64,000 nt of DNA from Patescibacteria group bacterium. GTDB lineage: Bacteria; Patescibacteriota; Gracilibacteria; UM-FILTER-43-11. Positions within the stretch are counted from its first letter, which is position 1. Each line of letters opens with the position of its first letter. This document shows positions 1 through 64,000 of this stretch, piece after piece. The notes beneath the pieces are model-generated. The model worked only from the letters and a program-made list of their open reading frames with translations. It ran no database searches and had not been told where the DNA came from. The stretch is taken from NCBI GenBank assembly GCA_018813295.1, contig JAHJBZ010000002.1, positions 1,935 through 65,934 of the forward strand, given 5' to 3'. The position numbers and the translations under genes were made by a program.

Positions 1-2144
1 TCGCTGCTTGGGGAGTTGATGTCTAAGTGTATGTCGTCTCCGGCTGTAAATATATCCGTCTGGTCTACAAGGGCAATGTAGTACTGCTGGGCAGGGGTGC
101 AGTCTGTGGATTGATTCGGGGTGTAGCCATTGTTTATATCACATGTACAATCGGGGAGGCAGCCTGTACCGCTGTCACATTCTTCATATATCTGGTCATC
201 ATTCGGAGTCTGGAGTATGCCGTCTCCGCAATAAGTTGCTCCTGCCTGTGTTACAGTAATTATAGATGTTGCTTCATTCGTAAGTTCATCATCATTTGTT
301 ACAAGCAGGGAAACCACATAAGTTCCTTCCACATCCGGAGTGAAGTCGGCTGTTTCGTCTGTGGCGTTTAATTGGGAACCGGAGTTCTGGGGTTTGTTTT
401 TAAGTGCCCAGAAGTAGAGTGAATCTCCGGGATCTTTTTCGTTAATTACAGTGGCTGTAAGGTTTATTGCTGATCCTGTTACTCCTGACCTTGGGCCGGA
501 GATGTATGCCTGGAGTGAGAGGCCTGAGGTTATTTCAGGATTTGTATATTCGTATTCTGTTTCCTGCGGGGACTGGATGTCAGACAGGCCGAGAGGAGGC
601 CAGGAGATGTTGGTATATGTGGTGCTTCCGTTTATTTGGAAAGCGCGGAGGACGAAAGATTCACTACCTAGTAGTGTTTCATCGATGGTGAAGTAGTAAT
701 TTTCTCTGGTTTGGTCGTAGGAGACATTTGTTATCTGGATAGGAGTTTCTCCTTCCATTACTTCTTTGGAGGCTGGGCTGATCTGGGATTCAGTGAATAT
801 CTGGAAACCGTTTTGGGGCTGGGTCAGGCCGTAGATGTCATCCACTGTTAATTGGTTGAAGGATATGTAGATGACGGAATCGTCTGTGTTTGCCTGTTCT
901 TCGGCACTTGTTATGTAAGGAAGCATACCGGAATGGATATCTGTGTAGCCCGCGTGAAGAACCTCACCTCCGTAATTGGAGTTGATGTAATCCAGAATAT
1001 CCTGATCTGTTACAGGCGCGCTGTTCTGGGGACCGGATGGGGTTATGTTGGCCTGGTGGGGGGCGGTTGGGGTGGCGGTTATTGTGCTGTTTGGGTCATA
1101 AGTTTCTCCAATCCAGACCTCCCCTGAGTAAACGAATACTTTCACTTCACCCAGGCAGAGGTCGATATCATCTACACATACGCCGAATTCCGTTCCTTTG
1201 GTGCCGGCAACGGCCTCAATTGTTTCTATGTTGAATTCAGATCTGCTGGCAAGGCGGACTACCTTGTTCCAGACTTTACCGGAGAGGAGTTTTGCCTGGA
1301 CTTTGGTGGAAGTGGTGTCTTCGTCGTTTTCAATTACCTCAGAATCCTCCTGAATTCTTAGTTTGCTTTCCGCGGAGAGGGTGGAAAGAGAGCCGTCAGA
1401 AAAATAGATGTCCACATAAGAATCAGCATACGTCTGAATTACATCTCCTGCAAAAAGAGGCTGTGTGTAATCAACGGCTAATATACCATTAGCGGAATCA
1501 CAGTCGGTGATATCAGGATCGTTTAGACCCGGGCAAACATATACTTCTCCGGCTGCATCTGCCAGGCCTGCCGAAATAACCCTGTGATCTGGGTTGTATG
1601 GAAGGTTTGTAGTGCTTTGGTGAACAACAAAATTAGGACTGTTGTAAGCGCGAATCAGGCTTGGTAAAAAAAATCCTTTACCTATATTTTCCTGAGTTTC
1701 AGCCCGGTATTCACCATTTTCATAAACTACGCCGGCCACCTGAGAATACTCACCATCCGCACTTACGCCGTAGACGTAACGGGAATTGGTTCGCGGATCA
1801 GTCGGCACCTCCTGGAGATATTGTTTTGTGAGCAAGTTGTTATCTATCATACCCTGATAAAACGTTGCCGAATCGCAATCATGAACGTAAGTGGCATCCG
1901 CTGCAAAACAAAGCACATTCATACTTCCGCCCGGTTCGGGTATTGGGTAAGTATTGTTGTGATCTTTTTTGTAACGCTCAAGGGCATTGGAAATGGCATT
2001 TAGATCGACGCCTACTCTGTTGTTTTTAAACCAATTACTTGTCCCTCTTATGCCAAAATAAGCTGCAGTGCTAAGCGTGCCGATAATTACGACTACAATC
2101 AGGAGTTCGACAAGAGTAAAAGCTTTTTTGTTGAGAATTTTCAT
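1..2144 (-). CDS. Large type IV pilin-like (class III signal peptide) surface protein; 3' end lies beyond window start
   Basis: Minus-strand ATG at 2144-2142 opens a frame that stays open to position 1. It is absent from the ORF track because it leaves the window. The N-terminus MKILNKKAFTLVELLIVVVIIGTLSTAAYFG is a prepilin leader plus FTLxE plus hydrophobic helix. Hand translation of 141-248 gives QAGATYCGDGILQTPNDDQIYEECDSGTGCLPDCTC, a CGDG..EECD Cys-rich repeat. Confidence 0.75.
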   Translation of the reverse strand, partial: MKILNKKAFTLVELLIVVVIIGTLSTAAYFGIRGTSNWFKNNRVGVDLNAISNALERYKKDHNNTYPIPEPGGSMNVLCFAADATYVHDCDSATFYQGMIDNNLLTKQYLQEVPTDPRTNSRYVYGVSADGEYSQVAGVVYENGEYRAETQENIGKGFFLPSLIRAYNSPNFVVHQSTTNLPYNPDHRVISAGLADAAGEVYVCPGLNDPDITDCDSANGILAVDYTQPLFAGDVIQTYADSYVDIYFSDGSLSTLSAESKLRIQEDSEVIENDEDTTSTKVQAKLLSGKVWNKVVRLASRSEFNIETIEAVAGTKGTEFGVCVDDIDLCLGEVKVFVYSGEVWIGETYDPNSTITATPTAPHQANITPSGPQNSAPVTDQDILDYINSNYGGEVLHAGYTDIHSGMLPYITSAEEQANTDDSVIYISFNQLTVDDIYGLTQPQNGFQIFTESQISPASKEVMEGETPIQITNVSYDQTRENYYFTIDETLLGSESFVLRAFQINGSTTYTNISWPPLGLSDIQSPQETEYEYTNPEITSGLSLQAYISGPRSGVTGSAINLTATVINEKDPGDSLYFWALKNKPQNSGSQLNATDETADFTPDVEGTYVVSLLVTNDDELTNEATSIITVTQAGATYCGDGILQTPNDDQIYEECDSGTGCLPDCTCDINNGYTPNQSTDCTPAQQYYIALVDQTDIFTAGDDIHLDINSPSS

Positions 2145-2230
2145 ATTTTTGTTTTTATTTTTAACTTTAAGTTATTTTAGCACGATGGTAGGGTGGAAGC
2201 AATTTATCTCACATATATTAAATAATATAA

Positions 2231-4598: not shown

Positions 4599-4782
4599 TT
4601 GATATTTAAGCCAAAATTTGGTATAATGTATAGATAATATCTACTTACGTGTGGACCAGGGCTAGCGCCCGTAGACCAGCTTCGCGTTGACCTATGCTAG
4701 CGCCTGTGGAATCTACATGAAATAGGTCCACACGAAGTAGGTCTACGCCGTAGGCAGATCGGTCCACAATGAAGTTAGAAAA
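4599..4782 (+). promoter_or_regulatory. Promoter (TTGATA-17-TGgTATAAT) plus ~150-nt structured leader cassette, copy 1
   Basis: -35 TTGATA is at 4599-4604 and the extended -10 TGGTATAAT at 4619-4627. Direct words GTGGACC/GTAGACC/GTTGACC follow, then their complements GGTCCAC/GGTCTAC/GGTCCAC, ending GAAGTTAGAAAAATG. A near-colinear copy is at 20934-21111. Confidence 0.55.
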
Positions 4783-6825
4783 ATGTTTAAAAAAATTGCA
4801 AAATTCATAGGTCTTGGCATTGCTGTGCTTGCAGTAACCGCATTATTTATGCGGCAAGAGTGGCTTATGAGCTTTCAATTAGGTATGCAAAATAAATTTT
4901 ACGACTATGATTTGCCAAGCAGCGAAATAGTGGTTGTGGCAATTGACGAAAAGAGTCTGGAGGAAGATCGATTAGGATTATTTGGACAATGGAAGAGGTC
5001 TTACTACGCAGACGCAATCGAAATATTAAATGATGCTGATGCGGCTGTAGTTGGAATAGACGTTACATTTCCGGACCAGTCATCACATGGTTCAGGCGAT
5101 GATGCAGTGCTGGCCAATGTTTTAGAAAAATACGACAACGTGGTTATGGCCTCCCGTTATTACTTTGAGGACGGAATGAAGGTAATTCAATGGCCCAACA
5201 ACACTTTAATGTCCGCAGATCCGAGTTTAGGATGGATTAATGTGCAGCTTGATGGAGATGGTTTTGTTAGAAGCTTGCCTCTTTTTGCCGCATCTAAGAA
5301 TGAGACTATTGAAGCATTTTCACTTGCCCTTTCTCGCATTTATTTAAATGTTGACCCTGTTGATTATCGTATTGTGGGTGATGAATTTAATTTTTCGGAC
5401 AATATTGTAATACCAACTATTACGCAACGTGATTCCCAGACACAGCAGGATGTTCATTCGATGTACATAAATTATTTTGCGGAACCAAATCGTTTTACGC
5501 ATATTTCTTTCTCGGACGTGCTTGATGGAAATTTTATTGATAAACGCGGTAACCCGATTGATTTTACGGATAAAATTGTATTAATTGGCCCTACTGCAAT
5601 TGATTTGCAAGACGATTATTTATCTCCTGTCAGCCAAGGCGTGCGTATGCCCGGTGTTGAGATCCATGCAAATAATATTCAGACAATAATTACAAAGCAA
5701 TTTTTGCGCGACCAGTCGACTTTAAGCTTGTGGATTACGCTGCTTTCTTTTTTGGCGATAAACATCATTTTATTCTCATTTCTTAAAGTTCGTTTCGCTA
5801 TTCCGCTTGTTCTTGCTGAGGTTTTTGGAGTGCTGGTTGCAGGGATTGTCGGTTATGAGTTCAGGATTTTTGTGAATGTAATTTATCCGATTCTGATAAT
5901 CTTTTTGAGTTTTATCGGAACGTATCTGGTGCGCTTTATTATGGAGCAGAAAGATCGTAAATTTATTGAAGGTGCATTTGGGCATTATGTAAACGAATCA
6001 GTTGTTAAACAAATTCTCCAGAATCCGAATATGCTCGAGCTCGGTGGAGCTAAGAGGGATATAAGTGTGTTCTTTTCGGATATAGCCGGATTCACCACTA
6101 TTTCGGAAGGTATGGAACCGGGAGAACTTGTTTCGTTTCTGAATGAATACTTAAAGGAAATGACGGAGATTATTTTAAAGCATGGCGGAACTCTGGATAA
6201 ATATGAGGGCGATGCAATTATGGCGTTTTGGAATGCACCACTCGCCCAGCACGATCATGCACTGAATACCTGTTTGGCAGCGCTGGAGAGTCAGGAGCAG
6301 TTAGTTAAACTGCGTAAGAAATGGGCAAGTGAAGGAAAGCCGGAAATTCGTGTTCGCATTGGCATTAACACCGGTGATGCTGTAGTTGGCAATATGGGCT
6401 CTGAGGATCGTTTTGATTACACGGCTATTGGAGATAATGTGAATCTGGCCTCCAGGCTTGAGGGCATTAATAAGCAATATGGGACCGGTTTGATTATTTC
6501 CGAATTCACCTTTAAAGAAATTAAAGATCATTTGATTTGCCGTGAACTTGACCTTATCCGGGTAAAAGGTAAAAACGAACCCGTGAGAATTTATGAACTC
6601 ATTAGCAAAAAAGACGCTGCAAAGAAAGATGTAACTGAAAAATTAACTAAGTTTGCAGAAGCGCTTGCGGATTACAGGAAGAAGAACTTTTTGGCTGCTA
6701 AGAAGAAGTTTGAGGAAATTAAGGATGATTTACCTTCACAGGTTTTTGCGAAAAGATGTGATAAGTTTATGGAAAACCCACCAGCTGGAGATTGGGATGG
6801 AGTGTATACGTTTACGACGAAATAA
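4783..6825 (+). CDS. CHASE2 sensor-domain class III adenylate/guanylate cyclase
   Basis: 680 aa with an N-terminal TM helix, a periplasmic CHASE2-like region and three TM helices. The cyclase homology domain carries FFSDIAGFTTISE, YEGDAIMAFWNAP, RIGINTGDAVVGNMGS and GDNVNLASRLE. Confidence 0.9.
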   Translation: MFKKIAKFIGLGIAVLAVTALFMRQEWLMSFQLGMQNKFYDYDLPSSEIVVVAIDEKSLEEDRLGLFGQWKRSYYADAIEILNDADAAVVGIDVTFPDQSSHGSGDDAVLANVLEKYDNVVMASRYYFEDGMKVIQWPNNTLMSADPSLGWINVQLDGDGFVRSLPLFAASKNETIEAFSLALSRIYLNVDPVDYRIVGDEFNFSDNIVIPTITQRDSQTQQDVHSMYINYFAEPNRFTHISFSDVLDGNFIDKRGNPIDFTDKIVLIGPTAIDLQDDYLSPVSQGVRMPGVEIHANNIQTIITKQFLRDQSTLSLWITLLSFLAINIILFSFLKVRFAIPLVLAEVFGVLVAGIVGYEFRIFVNVIYPILIIFLSFIGTYLVRFIMEQKDRKFIEGAFGHYVNESVVKQILQNPNMLELGGAKRDISVFFSDIAGFTTISEGMEPGELVSFLNEYLKEMTEIILKHGGTLDKYEGDAIMAFWNAPLAQHDHALNTCLAALESQEQLVKLRKKWASEGKPEIRVRIGINTGDAVVGNMGSEDRFDYTAIGDNVNLASRLEGINKQYGTGLIISEFTFKEIKDHLICRELDLIRVKGKNEPVRIYELISKKDAAKKDVTEKLTKFAEALADYRKKNFLAAKKKFEEIKDDLPSQVFAKRCDKFMENPPAGDWDGVYTFTTK

Positions 6826-6834
6826 GCTTATCGA

Positions 6835-6897
6835 TTTTTCATTTGAGATTTTTCATTTTACATTTAATTGAAAAATGAAAATTGAAAATTGAAAAAT
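6835..6897. repeat. AT-rich imperfect hairpin (TTTCATTT/AAATGAAA word family) at a convergent gene junction; possible bidirectional terminator
   Basis: tttttcatttgagatttttcattttacattt-aatt-gaaaaatgaaaattgaaaattgaaaaa. It is nearly identical to the element at 11051-11113. Confidence 0.55.
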
Positions 6898-7451
6898 TAG
6901 TAAGCTATCCAATATATCGCAAAAGCTATTGATACAATAAAAACGTTTCGAATCATTGTTTTGTAATCGCGTTTGTAAGGAACTTTCTTTTTTCTTGTAA
7001 GGATGAAATAACGGGTTACATCGTAAAAATAAGTGCTGAGTACTAAAATCAGGATGTAGGAAATAAAGGTTTTATCGGCATATAAACTAATTGGATCGAG
7101 TGATGTGTTTGGGGTGACATTTCCAATATAAAATGCAACTCCCGTAAGTATTAATAAATGAGTTACCTGATCACCTATGTAGAGTTGTAATTTCCATTTT
7201 GGATGTTTTTTATCTAGCTTTACCTTTATTTGGTCGATGATGTTGTGAGTTACAAAAATTACAGTAATTCCTATCCAAACGCTTTTTAGGTGTAAAAATG
7301 GAGATAAAACTGCTACTAGAACCGCCAAATGGATTAGACAATGCAAAAGCACGCCTAAATAAGTTTTATGCTTATATTCAACCAATTTATTTGGCTGCAG
7401 TGGATAATCCGCCAGGAAATGTATTAGGTAAAAATAGAGGAGGAGGTTCAT
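6897..7451 (-). CDS. DUF3307-like integral membrane protein
   Basis: 184 aa and multi-TM. The N-terminal HFLADYPLQ motif is typical of DUF3307. Confidence 0.55.
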   Translation of the reverse strand: MNLLLYFYLIHFLADYPLQPNKLVEYKHKTYLGVLLHCLIHLAVLVAVLSPFLHLKSVWIGITVIFVTHNIIDQIKVKLDKKHPKWKLQLYIGDQVTHLLILTGVAFYIGNVTPNTSLDPISLYADKTFISYILILVLSTYFYDVTRYFILTRKKKVPYKRDYKTMIRNVFIVSIAFAIYWIAY

Positions 7452-7909: not shown

Positions 7910-8059
7910 TGTATTTTTATTTTACGATATAACGATACAACGATATAACGAGACGACTTTTTTTTCAAGGTATTATCAGGGTATTATGTTGTTTCGTCGT
8001 ATCGTTATTAGGAGGGGCTTGACTTTTATGAAATTTCATGAAACGATAAGAAAACTGAT

Positions 8060-11043: not shown

Positions 11044-11050
11044 TCCCTAA

Positions 11051-11113
11051 TTTTTCATTTAAGATTTTTCATTTTACATTTAATTGAAAAATGAAAATTG
11101 AAAAATGAAAATT
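11051..11113. repeat. AT-rich hairpin, second copy of the TTTCATTT/AAATGAAA element, at a convergent junction
   Basis: tttttcatttaagatttttcattttacatttaattgaaaaatgaaaattgaaaaatgaaaatt. It differs from the 6835 copy by only a few positions. Confidence 0.55.
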
Positions 11114-12695
11114 AATTCGTCCTCTTAACAACAATAAGCGTAATATCATCCGCTTGCCTGTAATCACCCATGAAATCCTGTACGTCTTTAATTAAAGCGT
11201 CGTGTATTTCCTGTGCGGTAGCAAGCGTGCTGTTCTTTTTAACTGATTCTTTAAAACGGGCTTTTCCATAAGTCTCCTTTTCATTCTTCCAAGCTTCCGG
11301 AATACCATCGGTATAGAAAACTAGTACATCGTTTATGGCGACAGGCTCGGTTGCGGTTTTTGTAATATTGCTAATATCTTCAATCATACCAAGTGCCATA
11401 CCACCACCTGTTTCAAGTTCTACAATATTATTTTCAACTGCTTTATAATGGATAATTGGGTCATGGCCGGCTTGCGCAAAGCGAATGTCGGCTTTTTCCA
11501 CACTCCAGATTGCCATCATCATCGTCATAAATACATTTGGGCGGGTTTTGGCTTTTAGAATGTGGTTAAGGTGGGTGAGAATGTCCCCTGCCCTTTTGTA
11601 TTGTTCGAGGAATGCGGGGACAAGAGCGTTGTTAATTGCAGATACCAGCCCGGCAGAAACACCGTGGCCCGTTACATCTGCCACATAAAAAAGCAATTTA
11701 TCATCATCGATTTTAATAAAGTCATAACAATCACCGCCCACTTCATCCGCGGAGATGAGGGAAGCTGCAATATCCAAATTGCTGATTTTTGGAACATCTT
11801 TTGGAAGTAATTCCTTTTGGATTTGGCCCGCGAGTTCAAGCTCATGAGTTATTTTTTCCTTTTCAATCATGGCCTCGGTACTCTTTTCCAGATCCTCCGC
11901 CATTTTATTAAATGTATTTGCCAGCATGCCGACTTCACTTTTGGATTTAACGTCGATTCTGGTTTTAAGATCACCTGTACCAATTTTGCTGGCACCTTCG
12001 GTTAAAGTTTTAATCGGCGCAGTAATGCGGCCTGCTACTATTCCGCCGATAAAAAGGGCAATAACGATACCAAATAATGCCATCATCGCTATATCTACAA
12101 CAGTCCCCTGGATTCTTGAGATAAGTGCATCGTAAGATACATGATAATGAATTAAGTAGGCTCTTAGTGCATTACTCTGATCGCGAAAAGGATAAAAAAC
12201 ATCTTCAATTTGATCGGTATTTGCTATTGCCTCAACGTCCCGTCCATTTAAATTTGTATATCTGATCTCGTTATTTGTTTTTTCCAAATATACGATTCGT
12301 CCGCTTTTTTTAACTTTAACTGACGGGTAAATGGCCTGAATACGCTCAAGGTCTTCATCACTTAAAGCAGTGTGGTGTTCCTGAATTTTAGGATCGATGT
12401 ACAGCTGATCTCCATTATAATTAAGAATCGCAAGGCCTGTAATGTCGGTATTTAAGCTGTATATATCGGCAAGTTCCCTATCGAAATGAGCGTAAGCCTG
12501 TGTTTTGTAGTTATTTTCGTAATTTGCAACGACCCTCTCATGGGTAAGTTCGGCAAAACTAACTGCTTTAGTAAAAATATCGTGGTTTATTTCTTTGATC
12601 TTTTGATCAATCACAAAATATGCCGTTGCCCCCAGAATCAGAATTATGATTATGGATGTGGCAAAAACAATTTGTGATTTTACTGATCTAAACAT
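11112..12695 (-). CDS. Membrane sensor HAMP-domain PP2C (SpoIIE/RsbU-type) serine phosphatase
   Basis: TM helix, ~190-aa extracytoplasmic region and second TM, then HAMP (PIKTLTEGASKIGTGDLKTRI..NTFNKMAEDL) and PP2C motifs (GGDCYDF, ADVTGHGVSAG, TDG). I place the start at ATG 12695 (MFRSVK..). The 15 upstream codons in the ORF track lie inside an intergenic hairpin. Confidence 0.85.
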   Translation of the reverse strand: MFRSVKSQIVFATSIIIILILGATAYFVIDQKIKEINHDIFTKAVSFAELTHERVVANYENNYKTQAYAHFDRELADIYSLNTDITGLAILNYNGDQLYIDPKIQEHHTALSDEDLERIQAIYPSVKVKKSGRIVYLEKTNNEIRYTNLNGRDVEAIANTDQIEDVFYPFRDQSNALRAYLIHYHVSYDALISRIQGTVVDIAMMALFGIVIALFIGGIVAGRITAPIKTLTEGASKIGTGDLKTRIDVKSKSEVGMLANTFNKMAEDLEKSTEAMIEKEKITHELELAGQIQKELLPKDVPKISNLDIAASLISADEVGGDCYDFIKIDDDKLLFYVADVTGHGVSAGLVSAINNALVPAFLEQYKRAGDILTHLNHILKAKTRPNVFMTMMMAIWSVEKADIRFAQAGHDPIIHYKAVENNIVELETGGGMALGMIEDISNITKTATEPVAINDVLVFYTDGIPEAWKNEKETYGKARFKESVKKNSTLATAQEIHDALIKDVQDFMGDYRQADDITLIVVKRTN

Positions 12696-12761
12696 TATTA
12701 TTTTTGATTTTTGATTCTTGATTTGCGATTCAAAATTCAAAAATCACAAATCAGAAATGTT

Positions 12762-14939: not shown

Positions 14940-15051
14940 AATTTTTTAATCTTGAATTTTGAATCTTTTAATTGAATATTAATCTAATAATTATAGCATA
15001 AATAAACAGGAATTGCAAATTGCTTTAGTGGATGATTTTTGGTAATGTAAT

Positions 15052-15168
15052 TGTCTGAACTGTGATTTATGTGATTAAATGATTTTTATGATTTACCATG
15101 CATAAGCTTTGTGCATTCATAAAAAATCTTGTCCATCATTACAATCATAAAAAATCATAGTTCAGACA
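15052..15168. repeat. TGTCTGAAC...GTTCAGACA long hairpin element, copy 1
   Basis: The terminal inverted repeat is tgtctgaactgtgatt...aatcatagttcagaca, and the arms are built from TGATT/AATCA words. Further copies are at 38651-38770 and 39521-39629, with a solo left arm at 37920-37962. Confidence 0.65.
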
Positions 15169-15175
15169 AATTATT

Positions 15176-16206: not shown

Positions 16207-16305
16207 TCGGATAGTGGCTCGAATAGTGGCTCGAATAGTGGCTCGAATAGTGGTCCACAATACGAGCCACAGCGAAGCATGAGCCACGATACGAGCCACC
16301 ATTCG
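16207..16305. repeat. Hairpin built from a tandem 12-mer (ATAGTGGCTCGA x3, plus a degenerate fourth) and its complement words (CGAGCCAC)
   Basis: 16211-16258 holds three exact 12-nt units plus atagtggtccac. 16261-16300 holds tacgagccac..gagccac..acgagccacc. Confidence 0.6.
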
Positions 16306-16309
16306 GAAA

Positions 16310-18055
16310 ATGAATCATCTAGAAGAAATCAGGGCAAAACTTGCAATTGAAGAAGTCGTTGGCGGCTATATTCAGCTAAAAAAGGCTGGGCGGAATTTAA
16401 AGGGGCTGTGCCCGTTTCATAATGACTCTCGGCCGAGCTTTACAGTAAGCCCGGAAAAGGGAATTGCATATTGTTTTGCATGTAATACGGGTGGGGATAT
16501 TTTTAAGTTTATCCAGCTGATTGAGAATGTTGAATTTCCGGAAGCCGTGAGGATTCTGGCGCAAAGGGCTAATGTACCACTTCCTGAATTTAAGCCGGAA
16601 GCGCATAACAAACGCCTGCAGATTATTGAAATGAATCGCTCTTCTGCAAAGTTTTTTAGTGAGCAGCTGCAGGATTCAGATAAGCACAAAAAATATTTTT
16701 TAGATCGTGGACTCTCTGAGGAGACAATTCAGAAGTTTAAATTGGGGTATGCGCCGGATTCTTATCATGCATTAAAAGACAATTTGGAAAAAATTGGTTA
16801 TAAGGAAAATGACCTGATTAATTCCGGGCTTCTTAACCAGCGGTCCATTGCGGATAAAAATACGTATGACCGTTTCAGGAACCGTTATATCTTTCCGATT
16901 TATGATCATCAAGACAATCCGGTTGGGTTTGGAGGCCGGATTATTGATGAAGGCGAACCGAAATATTTAAATTCACCGGACACTCCAGCTTACAATAAAA
17001 GCCTTATCCTTTATGGCTTGAATTTTGGAAAAAATGCGGTTAAAAAAGAGGATTTAGCGGTATTCGTAGAAGGGTATATGGATGTTATTGCCGCTCATCA
17101 GGCTGGTACGGAAAATGTAATCGCCACCTCAGGGACCGCGTTAACGGCACCACAATTAAAACTTATTAAACGCTACACCCCAAATGTTGCGTTTGCTTTT
17201 GATCAGGACGCGGCTGGTTTAGAAGCCACTAAAAGATCTATTGAACTTGCCCAGGAAGCGGAACTTAATATAAAAATTGTTACCGTTCCTGAAGGAAAAG
17301 ATCCGGATGAATGTATTAAGAAATCCCCTGAAAAATGGATAGAGGCTATAAAAAATGCTGTGCCTGCTATGGATTTTTATTTTTCTTATGCCCTCAAGCA
17401 ATATGATAAAAATACCCTGGATGGGAAAAAGGGAATTCTTAACTTAATATTACCGCTCATTAAGCAGCATCAGACTGAAATGGAGCAAAATCAATATTTA
17501 GAGCGTTTGGCATTGGAGCTGAAAACCGATATTAAATTACTTTGGAATGATCTTAAAAATTTCAATATAAAAAAGACTTACTCGCAAGCGAAACAAGAGA
17601 CGGATCAGGTTCCAGTCAGGCAGATTTTTAGCCGAGAAGAGTTCCTGCTTGGCTTTATTTTTCATAAACCGGATTTGTACAACCTGGTGCAAGAAAATCT
17701 TATTGATAGTATCCCCTTTGATACGAGGACAGAAAAGTTTTACAAGGCTTGCAGAAAAGTGTACAATCGCTTAAGCACGATTGACCTAGGGGAATTAAAA
17801 AAGGAATTAGAGCCAGATGATCACGAAAAGCTGCAAATTTACCCTCTTCTTATAGAGGAACACTATCCTGATTTTGGGGATGATGCCATGGAGCGAGAGG
17901 TTATTAATCTCATACGCACCATTAATAAAACTAATTTACACAATGTACAAAAGGAATATGAGTTTAAAATTCGCGCAGCAAAAGATGCTGGAGAAAAAAC
18001 TTTGCTTTTAAATCAGTACAATCAAATTTTGAAACTTACTACTAAGATTAATTAA
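16310..18055 (+). CDS. dnaG: DNA primase
   Basis: 581 aa with a zinc-binding CPFHNDSRPSF..CFAC motif and a TOPRIM domain (VEGYMDV, FDQDAAG). Confidence 0.93.
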   Translation: MNHLEEIRAKLAIEEVVGGYIQLKKAGRNLKGLCPFHNDSRPSFTVSPEKGIAYCFACNTGGDIFKFIQLIENVEFPEAVRILAQRANVPLPEFKPEAHNKRLQIIEMNRSSAKFFSEQLQDSDKHKKYFLDRGLSEETIQKFKLGYAPDSYHALKDNLEKIGYKENDLINSGLLNQRSIADKNTYDRFRNRYIFPIYDHQDNPVGFGGRIIDEGEPKYLNSPDTPAYNKSLILYGLNFGKNAVKKEDLAVFVEGYMDVIAAHQAGTENVIATSGTALTAPQLKLIKRYTPNVAFAFDQDAAGLEATKRSIELAQEAELNIKIVTVPEGKDPDECIKKSPEKWIEAIKNAVPAMDFYFSYALKQYDKNTLDGKKGILNLILPLIKQHQTEMEQNQYLERLALELKTDIKLLWNDLKNFNIKKTYSQAKQETDQVPVRQIFSREEFLLGFIFHKPDLYNLVQENLIDSIPFDTRTEKFYKACRKVYNRLSTIDLGELKKELEPDDHEKLQIYPLLIEEHYPDFGDDAMEREVINLIRTINKTNLHNVQKEYEFKIRAAKDAGEKTLLLNQYNQILKLTTKIN

Positions 18056-18129
18056 CATTTAACATTTGACCATTGACTCCCGCTTAGCGCGATCAAATGT
18101 CACATGTCAAATGTCAATTGTAATAAAAT

Positions 18130-19389: not shown

Positions 19390-19433
19390 TCGAATTTTTA
19401 ATTTTTAATTTTTAATTTTTAATTTATTTATAA

Positions 19434-19913
19434 ATGGCTGATGAAAAAGAAGTTTTAGTTACCAAGGCGGGGCTGGCTAAGCTTAAAGAAGAACTTACGG
19501 AATATAAGGAGGTTCGCCGCAAAGAGGTTGCACAACGTTTAAAGGAAGCTATCGCATATGGTGACCTTTCTGAAAACTCAGAATACGAAGAAGCTAAAAA
19601 TGAACAGGCTTTTGTGGAGGGTAGAATTGTGGAGCTGGAGAGCATGATTAAGAATGCAAAAATTATTACCGATGATAAAAGTGGTCAGGACACTGTGCAG
19701 ATTGGTACAACTGTTACCGTTCAAAATATTACCGAAAATGATGATCCGGAGACTTACACCATTGTGGGTTCAACAGAAGCTGACCCTATCGAATACAAAA
19801 TCTCAAATGAGTCCCCTATCGGTTCTGCAATTTTAGGTAAAACAAAAAATGATATTGTTAAAGTGAAGGTACCGGCTGGGGTTTTTGAGTATAAGATTCT
19901 TAAGATCAAGTAG
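19434..19913 (+). CDS. greA: Transcription elongation factor GreA
   Basis: 159 aa with a coiled-coil N-domain (GDLSENSEYEEAK) and a C-terminal FKBP-like domain (SPIGSAILGK). Confidence 0.93.
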   Translation: MADEKEVLVTKAGLAKLKEELTEYKEVRRKEVAQRLKEAIAYGDLSENSEYEEAKNEQAFVEGRIVELESMIKNAKIITDDKSGQDTVQIGTTVTVQNITENDDPETYTIVGSTEADPIEYKISNESPIGSAILGKTKNDIVKVKVPAGVFEYKILKIK

Positions 19914-20009
19914 TTGAACTAATTGTTGAACTTATAGATGGACTAATAGGTGGACTTATCGATTAGTTCAACAATGGTCCAACAATAGTCCTTCAATTAG
20001 TCCAACAAT
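19914..20009. repeat. Word hairpin (GTTGAAC/TGGACT and their complements GTTCAAC/AGTCCA)
   Basis: gttgaactaattgttgaacttatagatggactaataggtggactt...agttcaacaatggtccaacaatagtccttcaattagtccaaca. Confidence 0.5.
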
Positions 20010-20855: not shown

Positions 20856-20878
20856 TTTTTTCAAGGAAACAGGATTCA

Positions 20879-20926
20879 GAAAACAGGAAACAGCTGAATC
20901 CTGAATTCTGTTTCCTGTTTTCTTTT
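20879..20926 (+). terminator. Rho-independent terminator after the PrsW-like gene
   Basis: Perfect 15-bp stem gaaaacaggaaacag (20879-20893) / ctgtttcctgttttc (20908-20922) with a 14-nt loop, followed by TTTT. Confidence 0.75.
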
Positions 20927-20933
20927 AAAATCC

Positions 20934-22275: not shown

Positions 22276-22296
22276 TGGATGTAATTATTTATTTTA

Positions 22297-44253: not shown

Positions 44254-44382
44254 TTTTCGCTTCGCTGTAGATTCGCCCTATCGGGCGTGGATGCGCTAAC
44301 GCTGTGGTTTTTTTGGAATTCCCTAAAACATCCACAGCGAAGCGAATCCACAGGCGAAGCCGCATCCACAGCGAAGCGAAAA
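44254..44382. repeat. MITE/REP-like hairpin element TTTTCGC..CTGTGGAT family, copy 2 (inverted orientation)
   Basis: ttttcgcttcgctgtagattcgccctatcgggcgtggat...atccacagcgaagcgaaaa. The internal cgccctatcggg is the reverse complement of the cccgatagggcg seen in copies 1 and 3. The element abuts the leuS stop codon. Confidence 0.7.
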
Positions 44383-46881
44383 TTATTTAACAACTATATT
44401 CACCAACTTCCCCGGAATATATATTTCCTTAATTATTTTCTTGCCATTGATATATCGTTTGATGGTTTCGTCTTTAAGGGCGGCGGATATGGCTTCATCT
44501 TTCGTGATATCTGTAGAAACCTCCTTTTTTGCCCGCACTTTTCCGTTGACGGAAAAAACCAATTCAAATGTGTTGTCGACTACTAATTCTGGATCAAATT
44601 CTGGCCACTTTTCATAGGCTATGGTTTTTTTATGACCTAATTTTTCCCAAATTTCTTCGGCTAAGTGAGGTGCGAATGGGGATAAAATTATGGCGAATTG
44701 TTTCATCAATGGCTTGCTTACATCTTTTCCTTTTTGGACTTCGTTGGCCAGGATCATCATTTGAGAAAGCGCGGTGTTAAAGCGGAAATTCTCTATATCT
44801 TCACCTACTTTTTTGATGGTTTTGTGGAGCAAGCGTTCGAGTTCTTCATCTGGTTTTTTGTTGATCACTTTCATTTCTTCGACAATACGATAGACTTTTT
44901 GCAAAAAGCGGAAGCTGCCCTCGATAGATTTTGTACTCCATGGTTTTACGGCTTCGAATGGCCCCATAAACATTTCATAAGCGCGGAGGGTGTCGGCACC
45001 GTATTTCTTTATTACATCATCTGGATTAATTACGTTGCCACGGGATTTACTCATTTTTTCTCCATCTTCGCCAAGGATAAGACCTTGGTTCATTAATTTT
45101 TGAAAAGGTTCTTTGTCTTTTACAAATTCCAGATCAAATAAAACCTTATGCCAAAAGCGGGCATAAAGCAGGTGGAGTACGGCATGTTCAGCGCCGCCAA
45201 CATATAAATCAACGTTCATCCAATAATCTTGATCTGCAATACTAATAAATCTTTTGCTATCTTTTGGGCTGAGGTAGCGGAGATAATACCAGCAACTACC
45301 AGCCCATTGCGGCATTGTGTTGGTTTCGCGTTTTGCAGGACCACTGCATTTTGGGCATTCGGTATTCACCCATTCATCTATGCCGGCAAGCGGTGATTCG
45401 CCAGTTCCGGTTGGTTCATATTTTTTAACGTCGGGGAGAAGCAGTGGGAGTTCGCTTTCATCAAGGGGTAAAGTCCCACAATGGTTACAGTGGACAACTG
45501 GAATTGGTTCTCCCCAGTAACGCTGACGGGAAAAAACCCAATCCTTTAATTTATAATTTACCGCACCTTCCCCTACTCCTTTTTCCTCAAGCCAGCGAAT
45601 AACTTCGTAGCGAGCCTTATCCTCTTCGTCATCGCTGGACCACAGGCCATTGAATTGAGCGGATTGCATCAAATAGCCGTAAGTGATGTAAGGAAGGTAA
45701 TTGTGCTCCTTCATATAAGCCTCAACTACTTTTTCATCTTCCGAGGAGAGTCTTGGTTTTATTTCTTTTGGGTTACCCTCCTCATCCGTGAATTTTTTAG
45801 GGCGTACAACAACACGCACGGGAAGACCATATTTCTTTGCAAATTCGTAATCCCTTTCATCATGAGCCGGCACACACATAATCGCGCCTGTACCGTAGCT
45901 TGCGAGTACGTAGTCGGCTATCCATATGGGTATTTCTTCGTTATTTACGGGATTGATGGCATAAGCGCCTGTAAATTGACCTGATTTTTCCTTATTTAGA
46001 TCTGTGCGCTCAAGATCGCTCTTCATCATCGCAAACTCCTTGTACTTTTCGACCTCTTTTTTGTATTCATTGGTTGTAATTTTGTAGACCAAAGGGTGTT
46101 CGGGCGAAAGCACCATATATGTTGCACCGAATAATGTATCTGGACGGGTTGTGTATACGCGTATTTTTTTCTCTGAATCCTTAACTTTAAAATCCACATC
46201 AGCTCCGTAACTCTTGCCGATCCAGTTGCGCTGCATAATTTTGATTGGTTCCGGCCAATCCACATCGTGTAAATCCTCTAGCAGACGATCGGCATATTCG
46301 GTGATTTTTAAAACCCACTGGCGAAGTAGTTTTTTAGTAGTCTGCTCTCCGCACCTTTCACATTTTCCGTCGACTACTTCTTCATTCGCAAGGCCTGTTT
46401 TGCAGCTTGGGCACCAGTTAATTGGTAATTCTGACTCATATGCAAGCCCCTTATTGTAAATCTGCAAAAATATCCACTGTGTCCATTTGTAGTAGTCGGG
46501 ATCTGTTGTATCCACTTCCCTATCCCAATCGTAGCTAAAGCCAATGGACTTAATTTGCTTTTTGAAGATTTTAATGTTTTCTTCCGTTACTTCGCGCGGG
46601 TGGCGGCCGGTTTTAATAGCGTAATTCTCTGCCGGCAGTCCAAAAGCATCCCAGCCCATTGGATGGAGGACGTTATAGCCTTTCATTCTTTTATAGCGGG
46701 AGATTATATCGGTAGCTGTATACCCCTCAGGATGGCCAACATGAAGCCCTGCCCCGCTTGGATACGGGAACATATCCAGAATATAGAATTTTTCTTTCTT
46801 TTTATCTAAATCTGCTTTAAAAGTTTTGTTTCTTTCCCAATATTTTTGCCATTTTGGTTCTATCTTGCTAGGATCGTACAT
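44383..46881 (-). CDS. leuS: Leucine--tRNA ligase
   Basis: 832 aa with [14 protein letters not shown] (HIGH), KMSKS and a CP1 editing domain. Confidence 0.97.
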
Positions 46882-52156: not shown

Positions 52157-53095
52157 ATGCGAATACTTGTTACCGGAGGAGCGGGGTTTATCGGCTCCAA
52201 TTTCATCCGTTATATGCTAGGCAGATACCCTGATTACCAGATTATCAATCTGGATAAACTGACGTACGCGGGTAATTTGGATAATTGTAAGGATTATGAA
52301 AGCAACCCCAATTACACTTTTGTGCAAGGTGATATTGCGGATGAGAAAGTGGTGGATGAATCGGCGCAAAAAGTAGACGTGATTATAAATTTCGCTGCGG
52401 AAACTCATGTGGATAGGAGCAATAATGAGTCGGCTCCTTTTTTGCAGACAAATATTATTGGAGTTAAGACGCTAATGGAGGCTGCGTTAAAGCATAATCA
52501 TGAACGCTTTTTTCAGATTTCTACGGATGAGGTTTATGGGGACATAATGGAAGGACACTTCAGCGAAGAATCCGTTTTAAAACCAAGTAACCCTTATTCC
52601 GCTTCCAAAGCCGCTGCGGAGATGCTGGCTATGGCTTATCACAGAACTCACAAACTTCCTGTGGTGATTTCCCGTTGCTCTAATAATTATGGACCATATC
52701 AATATCCTGAAAAAATCGTTCCGTTTTTCATTAAAAAACTGATGAATGGTGAAAAGGTTCCGGTTTATGGTGATGGTGCAAATGTCAGGGACTGGTTACA
52801 TGTAGATGATCACAGCCGTGCTATTGATTTGATTCTGCATAAAGGTAAAATTGGAGAGGTATACAATATCAGTGCAAACGAAGAACATTCGAATCTGGAT
52901 ATTACAAAAAGAATACTCAACATCCTCGGATATCTGGAGGATAGAATTGAATTTGTAAAAGACCGCCCTGGGCACGATGTTCGTTATGCAATTGATGCCA
53001 GTAAAATACGGAATGAATTGGGGTGGGAACCCTCTGTGAAGTTTGAGATGGGGTTTGAGGAGGTTGTGAATTGGTATAAAAATAATTTTATTTAA
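52157..53095 (+). CDS. rfbB: dTDP-glucose 4,6-dehydratase
   Basis: MRILVTGGAGFIGSNF Rossmann motif, YSASKAA catalytic YxxxK and DRPGHDVRYAID. I place the start at ATG 52157 rather than the TTG at 52136. Confidence 0.9.
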   Translation: MRILVTGGAGFIGSNFIRYMLGRYPDYQIINLDKLTYAGNLDNCKDYESNPNYTFVQGDIADEKVVDESAQKVDVIINFAAETHVDRSNNESAPFLQTNIIGVKTLMEAALKHNHERFFQISTDEVYGDIMEGHFSEESVLKPSNPYSASKAAAEMLAMAYHRTHKLPVVISRCSNNYGPYQYPEKIVPFFIKKLMNGEKVPVYGDGANVRDWLHVDDHSRAIDLILHKGKIGEVYNISANEEHSNLDITKRILNILGYLEDRIEFVKDRPGHDVRYAIDASKIRNELGWEPSVKFEMGFEEVVNWYKNNFI

Positions 53096-53170
53096 TTTAC
53101 AATTTTAAATTTTAAATTTTCAAACATTGAAATTTGTTTGTAAATTGTAAATTGTAAATTTAAAATTTTT
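53096..53170. repeat. AT-rich hairpin (TTTACAATTT/AAATTGTAAA family) between rfbB and glmS
   Basis: tttacaattttaaattttaaattttcaaaca..tttgtttgtaaattgtaaattgtaaatttaaaatt. Confidence 0.5.
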
Positions 53171-56200: not shown

Positions 56201-56830
56201 ATGGAATATATTCTCCAGCTCGACATCCATGGATACCCCCTACTAATGATTCCATGGAATATTATTTTGGCATTGGTGCCTTGCGCCATCGTCTACTATT
56301 TGGCGAAAGGGGTTGGTAAGAAAAAATGGAAACAGCTAAAAAATGACAGGTTTGCTTTTATGCTGATCTTTTTGATCTGGCTTTTTGTGCTGCCTAACAC
56401 TGCTTATCTTTTTATGATACCGAGGCATTTGGTGAATTATTGTGACAATCTTAGTATGTACCGAGTGTGTCTGGATGGATCGTGGTTGGTGATGTTCTTT
56501 TTTGCATATGCGCTTATCGGACTGCCGACTTTTTATTATGGACTTAATAAAATGGTTCGTATTTTTAAGACGATGTGTGGTGATTTGGCCGCGAAACTTT
56601 TGCCTATTTTTACGATCCCATTAATATCGATAGCTGTAATGTTTGGGCTGTATTCGCGTTATAACAGCTGGGACGTAGTGTTTCGGCCGAATTGTTTATT
56701 GAAGACTGTTGCTTCGTATTTTTCTGAGACCCATCTTTTGATTGATTTTGTTGTATTTACTCTGGGGCTTTATTTGATTTACTATGTAACTCGCTACGCT
56801 GTGGATGCGTCCCGATTACGGGACTGTTGA
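56201..56830 (+). CDS. DUF1361-like integral membrane protein; the last ~13 codons are supplied by a repeat element
   Basis: 209 aa and multi-TM with an LPNTAYLF..RHL motif. The C-terminal TRYAVDASRLRDC* is encoded by the left arm of the CTGTGGAT element. Confidence 0.55.
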   Translation: MEYILQLDIHGYPLLMIPWNIILALVPCAIVYYLAKGVGKKKWKQLKNDRFAFMLIFLIWLFVLPNTAYLFMIPRHLVNYCDNLSMYRVCLDGSWLVMFFFAYALIGLPTFYYGLNKMVRIFKTMCGDLAAKLLPIFTIPLISIAVMFGLYSRYNSWDVVFRPNCLLKTVASYFSETHLLIDFVVFTLGLYLIYYVTRYAVDASRLRDC

Positions 56831-56923
56831 TTCGGCTAACGCCTGTGGCTGAATTCAGTATACTTATTACATCCACAGCGTAGCGCATACATGCCCGATA
56901 GGGCGAATCCACAGCGTAGCGAA
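56791..56923. repeat. MITE/REP-like hairpin element (CTGTGGAT family), copy 3
   Basis: tcgctacgctgtggatgcgtcccgattacgggactgt...cccgatagggcgaatccacagcgtagcgaaa. It shares ctgtggatgcgtcccgattac.ggactgt with copy 1. Confidence 0.7.
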
Positions 56924-57220: not shown

Positions 57221-57300
57221 AATTTACAATTCACAATTTACAATTTACAAATAAACTTCAAAACCTTTTAAAATTTAAAATTGTAAATTTAAAATTAAAA
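57221..57300. repeat. AT-rich hairpin (TTTACAATTT/AAATTGTAAA family)
   Basis: aatttacaattcacaatttacaatttacaaa...aaaatttaaaattgtaaatttaaaatt. Confidence 0.5.
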
Positions 57301-57304
57301 TAAA

Positions 57305-58093: not shown

Positions 58094-58186
58094 TTGATTT
58101 CTGCCTACGGCGGTGGTCTAATTGGAGGCCTAATTGGTGTAATGCACCCATAAGGTCACCTATTAGAACCTCAATTAGAAATACTC

Positions 58187-62775: not shown

Positions 62776-64000
62776 ACTACAAGAAAGCAATTTTTAACAA
62801 AGATGGTCATTTTGGAACTTATGGCGGCAGGTATGTGCCGGAACTTCTCGTGCCAATTATGGATGATTTGGCAGACACTTTTTTCAAAGCCATTAAAGAC
62901 AAGGAATTTTTGGAGGAGCTGAATAATCTTTACAAAAATTATATCGGCAGGCCTTCGCCGCTTGTTCATCTAAAAAACCTATCAGATAAGTTAGGTGGCG
63001 CCCAGATTTATTTAAAAAATGAGGGGCTTAATCATACCGGTGCCCATAAAATTAATCACTGCCTTGGGCAAGGATTACTAGCAAAAAGAATGGGCAAAAA
63101 ACGTATTATTGCAGAAACCGGTGCAGGCCAGCATGGCCTGGCTACCGCTACTATATGCGCTAAATTTGGACTGGGGTGTACTGTTTATATGGGTGCTAAG
63201 GATTATGACCGCCAAAGACCGAATGTATTTTGGATGGAACAGTTGGGTGCACAGGTTATTCCAGTTTACGAAGGTGGACAGATTTTGAGAGATGCGATTA
63301 ATGCAGCCTTGCGTGACCTCATTTCTAATCCGATAGATAGTCATTATTTACTAGGAACAGTTTGTGGACCGCATCCTTATCCTGTCATGAATACATATTT
63401 TCAAAGAGTGATAGGAGGGGAAGTTCGTAAACAATTAAAAATTAAACCGGACTACCTTGTTGCTTGTGTGGGCGGAGGTAGTAATGCGATAGGACTTTTT
63501 TATGAATTTCTGGATGACAAGAACATTACAATGATCGGAGTTGAAGCTGGCGGGAAAGGAATAAAAAGCAAGAAGCACGCCGCTCGTTTTCAAGGTGGCA
63601 GTAAAGGTGTTGCGGAAGGTTTCAAATCCTTCTTTTTGCAAGACGATGATGGTCAGCTAGCTGAAACCCACAGTATTTCCGCCGGACTTGATTATTCTGG
63701 TGTCGGACCACAAATGGCTTATTTAAAGGAAAAAGGGCGTATTAAATTTACTTATTCGACGGATAAAGATGTTCTTAAGGCCTATAAAACACTCGCCAAA
63801 ACGGAAGGTATTTTAGCCGCTCTGGAATCCTGCCATGCAGTGGCGGAAGTTATTAAACTAGCACCGACCTTAAAACCCAAGCAGACAATTGTGGTGAATG
63901 GTTCCGGGAGAGGTGATAAGGATTTATTTATTGTCACGAAGGAGCTGAAGGATGAGGGATTTAGGGAATTTCTGAGGGAGCAGGGTTGTACCTTGGTTCC
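62772..64000 (+). CDS. trpB: Tryptophan synthase beta chain (3' end beyond window)
   Basis: Read by hand: MNYKKAIFNKDGHFGTYGGRYVPELL.., LNHTGAHKINH (PLP lysine), ETGAGQHG, GGGSNAIG, SISAGLDYSGVGP. The ATG overlaps the fusion-gene stop in ATGA. The frame is still open at 64000, past the usual TrpB C-terminus. Confidence 0.93.
   Translation, partial: MNYKKAIFNKDGHFGTYGGRYVPELLVPIMDDLADTFFKAIKDKEFLEELNNLYKNYIGRPSPLVHLKNLSDKLGGAQIYLKNEGLNHTGAHKINHCLGQGLLAKRMGKKRIIAETGAGQHGLATATICAKFGLGCTVYMGAKDYDRQRPNVFWMEQLGAQVIPVYEGGQILRDAINAALRDLISNPIDSHYLLGTVCGPHPYPVMNTYFQRVIGGEVRKQLKIKPDYLVACVGGGSNAIGLFYEFLDDKNITMIGVEAGGKGIKSKKHAARFQGGSKGVAEGFKSFFLQDDDGQLAETHSISAGLDYSGVGPQMAYLKEKGRIKFTYSTDKDVLKAYKTLAKTEGILAALESCHAVAEVIKLAPTLKPKQTIVVNGSGRGDKDLFIVTKELKDEGFREFLREQGCTLV

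Follow-up and report, generated by a model that had tools for sequence, protein, structure and literature searches.

The question raised by a 64,000-nucleotide stretch of the Patescibacteria contig JAHJBZ010000002.1 (hereafter the window, meaning the whole 64-kb stretch that was analyzed) is why most of its intergenic spacers are occupied by a long imperfect hairpin assembled from short tandemly repeated words and their inverted copies. Such a structure could be a transcription terminator, a signal read in RNA, an array of protein-binding sites or a self-propagating DNA repeat. The reading favored here, with a probability of about one half, is that the hairpins are extragenic palindromic short-tandem-repeat elements, similar to repetitive extragenic palindromes (REP) and miniature inverted-repeat transposable elements (MITE), which are generated and reshaped at the DNA level in some Peregrinibacteria-like lineages within the candidate phyla radiation (CPR). 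The CPR, or Patescibacteria, make up a large share of bacterial diversity, and to our knowledge almost nothing is known of how their transcripts start, end and are processed.

All counts of hairpins, families, arrays and genes given for the window refer to this one 64-kb stretch, which has a G+C content of 39%, a coding density of ~88% and the majority of its genes on the + strand. Exact matches to its proteins, looked up so as to extend the sequence, came only from sub-contigs of the window. The host is one of the ultra-small bacteria and, judged by its genes, a Peregrinibacteria-like CPR bacterium with the standard genetic code. Its UvrA is identical in two NCBI metagenome-assembled genomes (MAGs) and one Logan assembly, and the nearest species-level relatives (UvrA identity 76-89%) are all 'Candidatus Peregrinibacteria' or 'Patescibacteria group' MAGs. 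The window carries the housekeeping genes uvrA, ruvB, dnaG, rpoD, greA, valS, leuS, ruvA, pgi and glmS and a trp cluster, together with a MazF toxin gene, one gene for an IS30-like transposase and genes for surface proteins of pilin-like and giant type (Pfam scan).

Architecture of the Hairpins

A first-pass annotation of this DNA had described nearly every spacer as a hairpin of repeated words, and the description stands for most of them. The sites it quoted all carry the words it gave, with 7441 having the direct array only and lacking the inverted partner that would make it a hairpin; the spacers at 2145, 3279 and 52057 have no hairpin, and 51033-51086 and 58581-58598 hold canonical terminators. 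Folding was assessed by comparing the minimum free energy with that of 50 dinucleotide-preserving shuffles for 29 spacers of 40-310 nt and for length-matched coding controls (n=58). The folding z score fell below -2 in 23/29 spacers compared with 2/58 coding controls and below -3 in 19/29 compared with 0/58 (Mann-Whitney p=7.5e-10). Among the spacers of at least 40 nt the inverted repeat score was at least 30 in 29/35 and at least 40 in 20/35. Hairpins thus pervade the spacers far beyond what chance would give. Rfam, run on the window at gathering thresholds, matched tRNA-His only and placed no known RNA family at the hairpins.

The arms are 24-71 nt long, equal in length and contiguous, with loops of 0-1 nt in the hairpin alignments. 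Their complementarity is 70-93% with periodic mismatches, ~72% of the Watson-Crick pairs being A·T, and the typical stem consists of perfect helices of 5-9 bp split by mismatches of 1-4 nt that recur at the word period. Tandem Repeats Finder (TRF) located ~100 tandem arrays, almost all of them intergenic, in which period 7 prevails and periods 8, 9, 12 and 15-17 are also represented. Arm periodicity exceeded the 95th percentile of shuffled arms in 26/42 hairpin arms versus 34/420 coding controls, the period being mainly 7 or 14. More than 15 different words occur in the 64 kb, most arrays are matched by an inverted array, and ~42% of the intergenic bases belong to a hairpin or word array.

The recurrence of words between spacers that had been noticed earlier resolves into eight families (a-h) with 2-4 window copies each, plus singletons. 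Copies of a family share loops and idiosyncratic mismatches, an example being the A·A mismatch of GACTATTAC / GTAAAAGTC that recurs in both b copies. The two a copies, annotated as almost identical over about 60 nt, match at 60/63 bases (6834-6896 against 11050-11112), loop included. Assemblies and read sets of the organism that are independent of one another (two NCBI MAGs and three Logan runs; L002, L084 and L085-L089) contain identical hairpins, which are therefore not an assembly artefact. The elements are given below with coordinates, strand where one is assigned, and description.

4599..4782, + strand: copy 1 of the d module, an extended -10 promoter TTGATA-17-TGgTATAAT, a GC-richer GTGGACC/GGTCCAC hairpin of ~130 nt, then GAAGTTAGAAAAATG
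6825..6906: family a hairpin with words TTTTTCATTT / AAATGAAAA between convergent genes, the outermost pairs reaching both stop codons
7447..7481: TTCATTT direct array with no inverted partner
7924..8011: ACGATATA-word hairpin adjoining the start of a minus-strand cNMP-binding gene; the ACGATATA array is shared with relative L011
8060..8130: family f hairpin, TTCAAAAT / ATTTTGAA, in the uvrA 5' untranslated region (UTR) just 3' of a promoter conserved in relatives
11048..11114: family a hairpin near-identical to 6825-6906, in the convergent spacer between uvrA and a SpoIIE-phosphatase gene
12695..12756: f-like hairpin, TTTTTGA / TCAAAAT, separating two minus-strand genes
14941..14992: array of TTTTGAA-type words within the 5' UTR of the minus-strand gene 12762-14939, downstream of promoter 15018-14990(-)
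15048..15173: family e hairpin with termini TGTCTGAAC...GTTCAGACA, 2 nt before the ruvB ATG; a different hairpin stands here in a 95%-identical relative
16208..16305: ATAGTGGCTCGA x3.9 and inverted copies, filling the ruvB-dnaG spacer from 6 nt past the stop codon to 4 nt before the ATG
18050..18119: CATTTGAC / GTCAAATG hairpin in the dnaG-rpoD spacer, orthologous in L095 and strain-polymorphic (L001)
19393..19425: (AATTTTT)x4.7 direct array in the rpoD-greA spacer
19913..20006: GTTGAAC/TGGACT hairpin of 12-nt words in the greA-PrsW spacer
20857..20930: GGAAACAG / CTGTTTCC hairpin immediately 3' of the PrsW stop codon
20934..21111, + strand: copy 2 of the d module, promoter, GC-richer hairpin and leader, upstream of the open reading frame (ORF) at 21112
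21517..21590: CGATATTC / GAATATCG hairpin in a convergent spacer
22296..22423: family c hairpin with words CTGTGGAT / ATCCACAG and conserved ends TTTTCGC...GCGAAAA
22647..22813: AATTACAA / TTTGTAAT inverted arrays with 101 nt between them, ending at the valS start
25576..25636: family f hairpin that begins where transcription from promoter 25535-25563 is predicted to start
25905..25985: family h hairpin, TAAGTCTTAAG...CTTAAAACTTAA
25967..26033, + strand: heptamer leader array CTTAAAT x9.9 upstream of a 1768-aa gene
31954..32035: AT-rich hairpin in a divergent spacer
32727..32778: family h hairpin with a left arm that takes in the last 10 nt of gene 32068-32736
33961..34024: between convergent genes, a family g hairpin, TTTACAATTT / AAATTGTAAA
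35811..35907: family b hairpin, GACTATTAC / GTAAAAGTC, every unit showing the recurrent A·A mismatch; the ruvA ATG follows after 3 nt
36499..36608: imperfect hairpin with 44-nt arms and g-type words in the ruvA-pgi spacer
37968..38082: family h hairpin, AAATCTT heptamer leader array and Shine-Dalgarno sequence
38650..38796: family e hairpin beginning at the base right after a stop codon, with an A-rich tract next
39521..39699: family e hairpin, A-rich tract and AATCGCT/AATCTTA leader array before the gene at 39715
42985..43086: family b hairpin separated by 3 nt from the stop codon ahead of it and by 15 nt from the ATG that follows
44249..44387: family c hairpin that is oriented opposite to the other two c copies and covers both stops of a convergent pair
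53094..53167: family g hairpin between the rfbB-like gene 52136-53095 and glmS
56791..56922: family c hairpin lying partly within gene 56201-56830, at its 3' end
57221..57301: family g hairpin oriented opposite to 33961 and 53094, 8 nt before the ATG at 57305
58117..58167: CTAATTGG-word hairpin downstream of gene 57305-58093

Short-read contigs of the same organism (L002, L084, L086 and L088) repeatedly stop within hairpins or word arrays, at positions 6859, 11091, 19398, 33976 and 38036.

Position Relative to Genes and Promoters

Hairpins are found in convergent, divergent and co-directional spacers, as had been reported, and their placement within each class is regular. Between co-directional genes the hairpin makes up nearly the whole spacer, its start mostly at -6 to +6 nt relative to the stop codon and its end 2-15 nt ahead of the following ATG, as in ruvB-dnaG, dnaG-rpoD, greA-PrsW, 39715-43102 and rfbB-glmS. 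All five convergent spacers (5/5) are bridged by a single hairpin, two more convergent pairs having overlapping ends. Where genes diverge, a separate hairpin or array tends to adjoin the start of each. The best promoter matches of the window are four extended -10 promoters (4599-4627, 20934-20962, 25535-25563 and, on the minus strand, 15018-14990) and the uvrA promoter that is conserved across relatives; each is followed by a hairpin or array no more than ~10 nt from where transcription is predicted to start. The hairpins thus lie at predicted transcript 5' ends, at predicted 3' ends and between cistrons. Within the hairpin arms themselves the frequency of sigma-70-like promoter hits does not exceed that in shuffles.

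Both family e hairpins that lie 3' of + strand genes are followed by an A-rich tract of 20-30 nt on the sense strand (38772-38796 and 39630-39650), the opposite of a U-tract. Arrays of the heptamers AATCTTA/AATCTAA/AATCGCT (25967-26033, 38037-38082, 38801-38836 and 39660-39699), followed by an AAGGAGG Shine-Dalgarno sequence, lead into four surface or pilin-like genes at 26037, 38212, 38920 and 39715. The layout of these surface-gene leaders is similar to that of contingency loci with 7-nt repeats such as H. influenzae hmw (PMC12721329), and by analogy a dependence of expression on copy number is possible.

Differences from Canonical Terminators

A U-tract, taken as at least six T in the 10 nt past the stem, is present at 1/15 window hairpins and at 5/35 when those of relatives are included, which bears out the earlier remark that most hairpins lack one and are not simply terminators. 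Sites with a canonical stem and T-tract show no enrichment over shuffles (11 vs 16.4, 17 vs 16.4 and 17 vs 16.3). A few well-formed canonical terminators do occur in the window, at 58581-58598 followed by T7 and at 51033-51086 (-), so polymerase appears to use the normal signal. In place of a short GC-rich stem of 5-14 bp with a loop of 3-8 nt, the word hairpins have long, AT-rich, imperfect stems. They are also not confined to the ends of transcription units, being located between ruvB, dnaG, rpoD and greA at 2-10 nt from the next ATG, within operons that relatives conserve in a translationally compact form, with others placed right after predicted transcription starts. The word hairpins are in our view not canonical intrinsic terminators.

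The mismatches in the stems carry further information on the level at which the hairpins arise. Non-Watson-Crick positions were taken from DNA-scored stem alignments in co-directional spacers and read in the orientation of the sense strand. The word hairpins show no excess of G·T over A·C, with 13 vs 17 in the window and 15 vs 17 in the CPR relatives (28 vs 34 in total), whereas ordinary hairpins of 65 co-directional non-CPR spacers passed through the same pipeline gave 22 G·T vs 8 A·C, the expected RNA signature; the two ratios differ (Fisher p=0.014). Around 70% of the stem mismatches are of transversion type, the pattern of random juxtaposition rather than of transition decay from once-perfect pairs. 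Together with the mixed orientation of single families, these two features point to a strand-symmetric origin and maintenance at the DNA level, and they argue against strong selection for single base pairs on one RNA strand. Among the hairpins checked there was no consistent arm polarity, that is, neither the T-rich nor the A-rich arm regularly comes first.

Dispersal and Mobility of the Families

Orientation with respect to transcription is mixed in family c (44254 versus 22290 and 56791) and in family g (57221 versus 33958 and 53094). Copies of families c and e are 0.70-0.87 identical in their outer quarters and 0.57-0.61 identical in the inner half, each copy still being self-complementary; conserved terminal inverted repeats of MITE type are thus a feature of these two families and not of all. 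The d module is a unit of promoter, hairpin and leader duplicated upstream of two unrelated genes, a CHASE2 cyclase gene and a 133-aa ORF. The module, whose leader includes GAAGTTAGAAAwATG, has its only other match among the fetched loci in L001, which is of the same species, and it looks like the copy-and-paste product of a mobile promoter.

Word families recur at non-orthologous sites of other genera. The CATTTGAC word forms two inverted arrays in L023, ~430 nt apart, each adjoining a start codon and together flanking a divergent spacer, and ATAGTGG/GTGGCTCG words are present in L094 and L017. A hairpin with the 12-nt termini of family e, TTGTCTGAACCG...CGGTTCAGACAA, and a word-built interior is located on the IMG/VR contig UViG_2932071980_000001 (L099 2775-2880), which encodes a phage terminase and a prohead protease. 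This was the one convincing match when the viral collection was scanned with the pattern of the family e termini, and scans of that collection with 17-mers of the CATTTGAC hairpin and of family c returned unrelated coding sequence only. The phage copy hints that family e at least moves horizontally.

Comparison with Relatives

The trait is patchy. Long inverted repeats are strong in the window, where 17/29 spacers score at least 40, and are also present in some other CPR loci (L004, L005, L013, L017, L023, L059, L016, the Parcubacteria MAG L046 and the unclassified MAG L026). They are absent from equally close relatives (L006, L009, L015, L028, L067 and L074) and from the non-CPR controls, in which a hairpin has a short GC-rich stem free of mismatches, together with A- and T-tracts. 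Given this distribution among relatives, the word hairpins are not a general property of the clade.

Loci retrieved from metagenomes with a PGI query were 65-66% identical and served for synteny, being too distant for fine-scale evolution; a RuvB homologue query gave two intermediate relatives, L094 (95% RuvB identity) and L095 (90%). Over 21 orthologous pairs of adjacent genes the median spacer is 108 nt in the window versus 33 nt in the relatives. From ruvA and pgi through three surface genes to the next gene the spacers measure -14 to +9 nt in L091 and L093 versus 120-278 nt in the window, and in a relative with 87% RuvB identity the spacers of the series ruvB-dnaG-rpoD-greA-PrsW measure 6-36 nt. 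The simplest reading of these sequences is that hairpins were added to compact operons in some lineages.

Where a spacer carries a hairpin in several lineages, the hairpin is often a different one. The window, L011, L017 and L023 have unrelated word hairpins at the uvrA 3' spacer, where L006, L028, L067, L015 and L009 have none, and the spacer between the DUF3307 and cNMP-binding genes holds differing hairpins in the window, L004 and L005 and measures only 9 nt in L011. In the ruvB 5' UTR the family e hairpin of the window is replaced in L094, at 95% RuvB identity, by a hairpin of GTGGCGC words behind a conserved promoter. The dnaG-rpoD hairpin is orthologous in the window, the strain L001 and L095 (90% RuvB identity), with the same CATTTGAC words and with differences in unit number, unit variants and loop. 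At 16208-16305 the left arm is 97% homogeneous (ATAGTGGCTCGA x3.9) and the units of the right arm have diverged, which indicates recent slippage within one arm.

The window and L001 are 99.97% identical over 19.4 kb save for a 110-bp patch centered on the dnaG-rpoD hairpin. The patch (18019-18128, against L001 19248-19375) covers the last 35 nt of dnaG and the hairpin and has ~50 differing positions; it could be a short recombination tract or a hypervariability local to the hairpin.

Neighboring Genes

Three other parts of the window stand apart from the hairpins. In the region 58254-64000 a single ORF of 1383 aa (58624-62775) fuses TrpE, TrpG, TrpD, TrpC and TrpF domains and is followed by trpB; upstream of it lie an 82-aa TrpR-like ORF and the canonical hairpin with T7 at 58581-58598, a possible attenuator or terminator. 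A full tryptophan pathway is unusual in a CPR genome, and a five-domain fusion is more so. The IS30-like transposase gene (47519-48496, minus strand; HTH_38 and rve domains) is located inside the sole long minus-strand block of the window (44383-51800), where the GC skew is also negative. The DNA flanking the gene (46882-47518 and 48497-49163) is long and AT-rich with small ORFs, and clear terminal inverted repeats were not found. The MazF/PemK toxin gene (55566-55898, minus strand) overlaps the end of a LysE gene by 4 nt, and the 302 nt upstream of it (region 55566-56200, minus strand), probably antitoxin-coding, belong to the few large spacers that lack a word hairpin.

Origin of the Hairpins and Alternative Explanations

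The favored reading, of REP/MITE-like elements shaped at the DNA level, comprises several steps. The comparisons support that elements were inserted at junctions where the relatives have spacers of only 0-20 nt or overlapping genes, that several families are dispersed in both orientations, that copies gain and lose 7-12-nt words and have their hairpin center replaced, and that one family can give way to another at a given spacer between close relatives. Within each arm the words would be multiplied by replication slippage, and short-range template switching or inversion in DNA would create or keep the complementarity of the arms; whole hairpins would occasionally be copied to other spacers and to phage by a copy-and-paste route. 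Template switching homogenizes and expands inverted repeats (PMC13100816, PMC5941160). The confinement to transcript boundaries may reflect where a compact genome tolerates non-coding DNA. The annotation had gone on to suggest a genome-wide system of hairpin generation, and of this the generating process survives, as it fits the gains, swaps and resizing among relatives. The hairpins may or may not be the work of a dedicated system or be recognized as punctuation by a protein or an RNA; a Pfam scan of the window ORFs gave no candidate enzyme.

Once transcribed, the hairpins would give long, imperfect, AT-rich stem-loops without U-tracts. The E. coli REP elements and the inverted repeats at chloroplast 3' ends act as end-protecting or processing structures or as leaky terminators, and by analogy the transcribed hairpins would probably serve mainly as stem-loops that protect or process 5' and 3' ends and at most as leaky terminators. 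Since the same 5' UTR or 3' end keeps a hairpin while its sequence is swapped, such a use appears likely.

Several points weigh against this account. Target-site duplications were not seen at the flanks of the family copies, and the window encodes no mobilizing enzyme other than the IS30-like transposase, whose ends are unlike any hairpin family. The seeding of a hairpin between overlapping genes is left unexplained. The dnaG-rpoD hairpin keeps its place in the window, L001 and L095, down to about 90% RuvB identity, and certain sites are never without a hairpin even though its sequence differs; both observations could equally be compatible with selection for structure. The wobble test comprises only 62 mismatches, the RNA-level role is read from position only, and the evidence is confined to 64 kb of the genome.

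Among the alternatives the one that survives best, although it is rather unlikely, is that the hairpins are selected punctuation in RNA, signals of structure independent of sequence, placed at each transcript boundary, at which cleavage by a structure-specific RNase such as RNase III or the blocking of exonucleases splits and stabilizes polycistronic RNAs, the DNA-level origin being incidental. The precision with which hairpins adjoin stop codons, stand 2-15 nt ahead of an ATG and mark predicted 5' ends fits this explanation, as do the ruvB 5' UTR and uvrA 3' end, which keep a hairpin in several lineages despite sequence replacement, the internally diverged yet self-complementary copies of family e, and the copying of the d module as one unit of promoter, hairpin and leader. 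It is difficult to reconcile with the lack of a sense-strand G·U excess such as the control terminator hairpins show, with copies of a single family in both orientations relative to transcription, and with close relatives that have identical operons without any hairpin. In L023, moreover, neither transcript would hold both of the inverted arrays that lie ~430 nt apart across the divergent spacer.

That the hairpins are U-tract-independent, often bidirectional terminators that have replaced the canonical ones in an AT-rich lineage is unlikely. Convergent spacers are bridged by one hairpin in 5/5 cases, the stems are long and stable, and the canonical sites do not exceed shuffles, so something else may end transcription. 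Yet many of the hairpins are placed inside conserved operons (ruvB-dnaG-rpoD-greA, and from ruvA-pgi onward) at 2-15 nt from an ATG, with no room for a promoter, and others in 5' UTRs right after promoters. The U-tract is missing, good canonical terminators are available in the window (58581-58598 then T7; 51033-51086), and relatives manage without hairpins.

It is very improbable that the words are DNA-binding sites of a nucleoid-associated protein, gyrase or a regulator, with the direct and inverted layout reflecting cooperative or dimeric binding and the hairpin being irrelevant. The symmetry is strand-neutral, the 7-nt period gives a super-period of 21 bp or about two helical turns, and some word families are common to genera at non-orthologous sites beside start codons; REP elements and the bacterial interspersed mosaic elements (BIME) built from them bind gyrase and IHF. 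A binding protein would, however, have to contend with at least 15 unrelated words in 64 kb that are freely replaced at orthologous sites and are missing altogether from relatives, and contiguous arms of equal length with almost no loop are the layout of a fold-back rather than of an operator array. An assembly or chimera artefact of metagenomic short reads can practically be dismissed, because identical hairpins occur in two NCBI MAGs and three Logan runs and similar ones in many unrelated CPR MAGs, even though contigs of the organism often end within hairpins and the repeats therefore disturb assembly.

Comparison with Known Systems

A close likeness is with REP/BIME elements. These too are extragenic palindromes of imperfect symmetry that occupy positions behind stop codons or between the cistrons of operons, in both orientations, lack a U-tract and are patchy between lineages. 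REPs differ in forming one or a few families of 20-40 nt with hundreds of near-identical copies and a conserved GTAG head, whereas the window has many low-copy families without a common head, their 25-70-nt arms being tandem arrays of 7-12-nt words. REPs stabilize the upstream mRNA rather than terminate transcription, and the REP/BIME of enterobacteria and pseudomonads are mobilized by REP-associated tyrosine (RAYT) transposases. No Y1/RAYT transposase was found among the window ORFs scanned against Pfam.

MITE-like Correia elements of Neisseria resemble families c and e in their conserved inverted termini and variable interiors, and the d module in that Correia elements can bear promoters. 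Correia hairpins are transcribed and then cut by RNase III. The window elements differ in having neither a target-site duplication nor, within the 64 kb, a matching autonomous insertion sequence and in that the whole element folds back, rather than terminal repeats enclosing a unique core. With intrinsic (Rho-independent) terminators the elements share a hairpin 3' of the stop codon, and they differ in having stems 3-5x longer that are AT-rich, imperfect, without a U-tract, present in 5' UTRs and operons and free of sense-strand G·U bias.

Intergenic heptamer repeats, namely the short tandemly repeated repetitive (STRR) sequences of cyanobacteria and the TAACTGA repeats of Beggiatoaceae (PMC4679880), likewise form period-7 arrays at many loci per genome. 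They consist of one or a few genome-wide words in direct orientation, whereas in the window many words form an array and an inverted copy that give a hairpin. Hairpin-forming repeats of mitochondria (sponge RHE, PMC2800124; fungal double-hairpin elements) and the short dispersed repeats of the Chlamydomonas plastid are alike in that several families invade the spacers of a compact genome with no known element-encoded enzyme, a patchy occurrence among relatives and rapid turnover; these differ in being organellar, mostly GC-rich and not described as built from tandem words.

Four further systems were considered and rejected. TIGR arrays, which occur in CPR, are clustered beside a Nop-domain Tas gene and have box C/D motifs and dual spacers (PMC12045711), whereas the window contains no Nop-domain/Tas gene and its hairpins are single, dispersed one per spacer and have loops of 0-1 nt. 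Integron attC sites, which trail mobile cassettes that lack promoters and vary in content, beside an intI gene, do not fit flanking housekeeping genes whose synteny is conserved across genera, and an integrase was not found in the window; paired DNA-uptake sequences of the Neisseria and Haemophilus type would require a single genome-wide word; and DnaA boxes (ATCCACA in family c) are matched only partially, with a GC skew that shows no origin in the window.

In the literature searched there was no description of such hairpins in CPR. A survey of 118,019 genomes places CPR phyla highest of all phyla in the density of perfect inverted repeats, the nature of the repeats being unstated (PMC13155455). 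The combination of fold-back arms made of tandem words, many low-copy families that saturate the spacers, and insertion into conserved CPR operons is apparently undescribed; analogous repeat invasions are known elsewhere.

Implications

For one lineage, the window supplies an anatomy of the CPR inverted repeats as palindromic tandem-repeat elements that have invaded formerly compact operons, turn over fast and are unlike ordinary terminators. The hairpins fragment short-read CPR assemblies and MAGs and will mislead predictors of terminators and small RNAs. If they are selfish, they represent a rare proliferation of repeats in genomes that are otherwise strongly streamlined, and if they shape RNA ends they would provide reduced genomes with a cheap, sequence-free punctuation of genes. 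A bolder version, which we consider quite doubtful, is that some CPR lineages actively install and swap variable word-built stem-loops at every transcript boundary, possibly by means of an enzyme, and that structure-specific factors read them as a U-tract-independent grammar for RNA ends and operon segmentation; if true, genes would be punctuated in a way that has not been described for bacteria.

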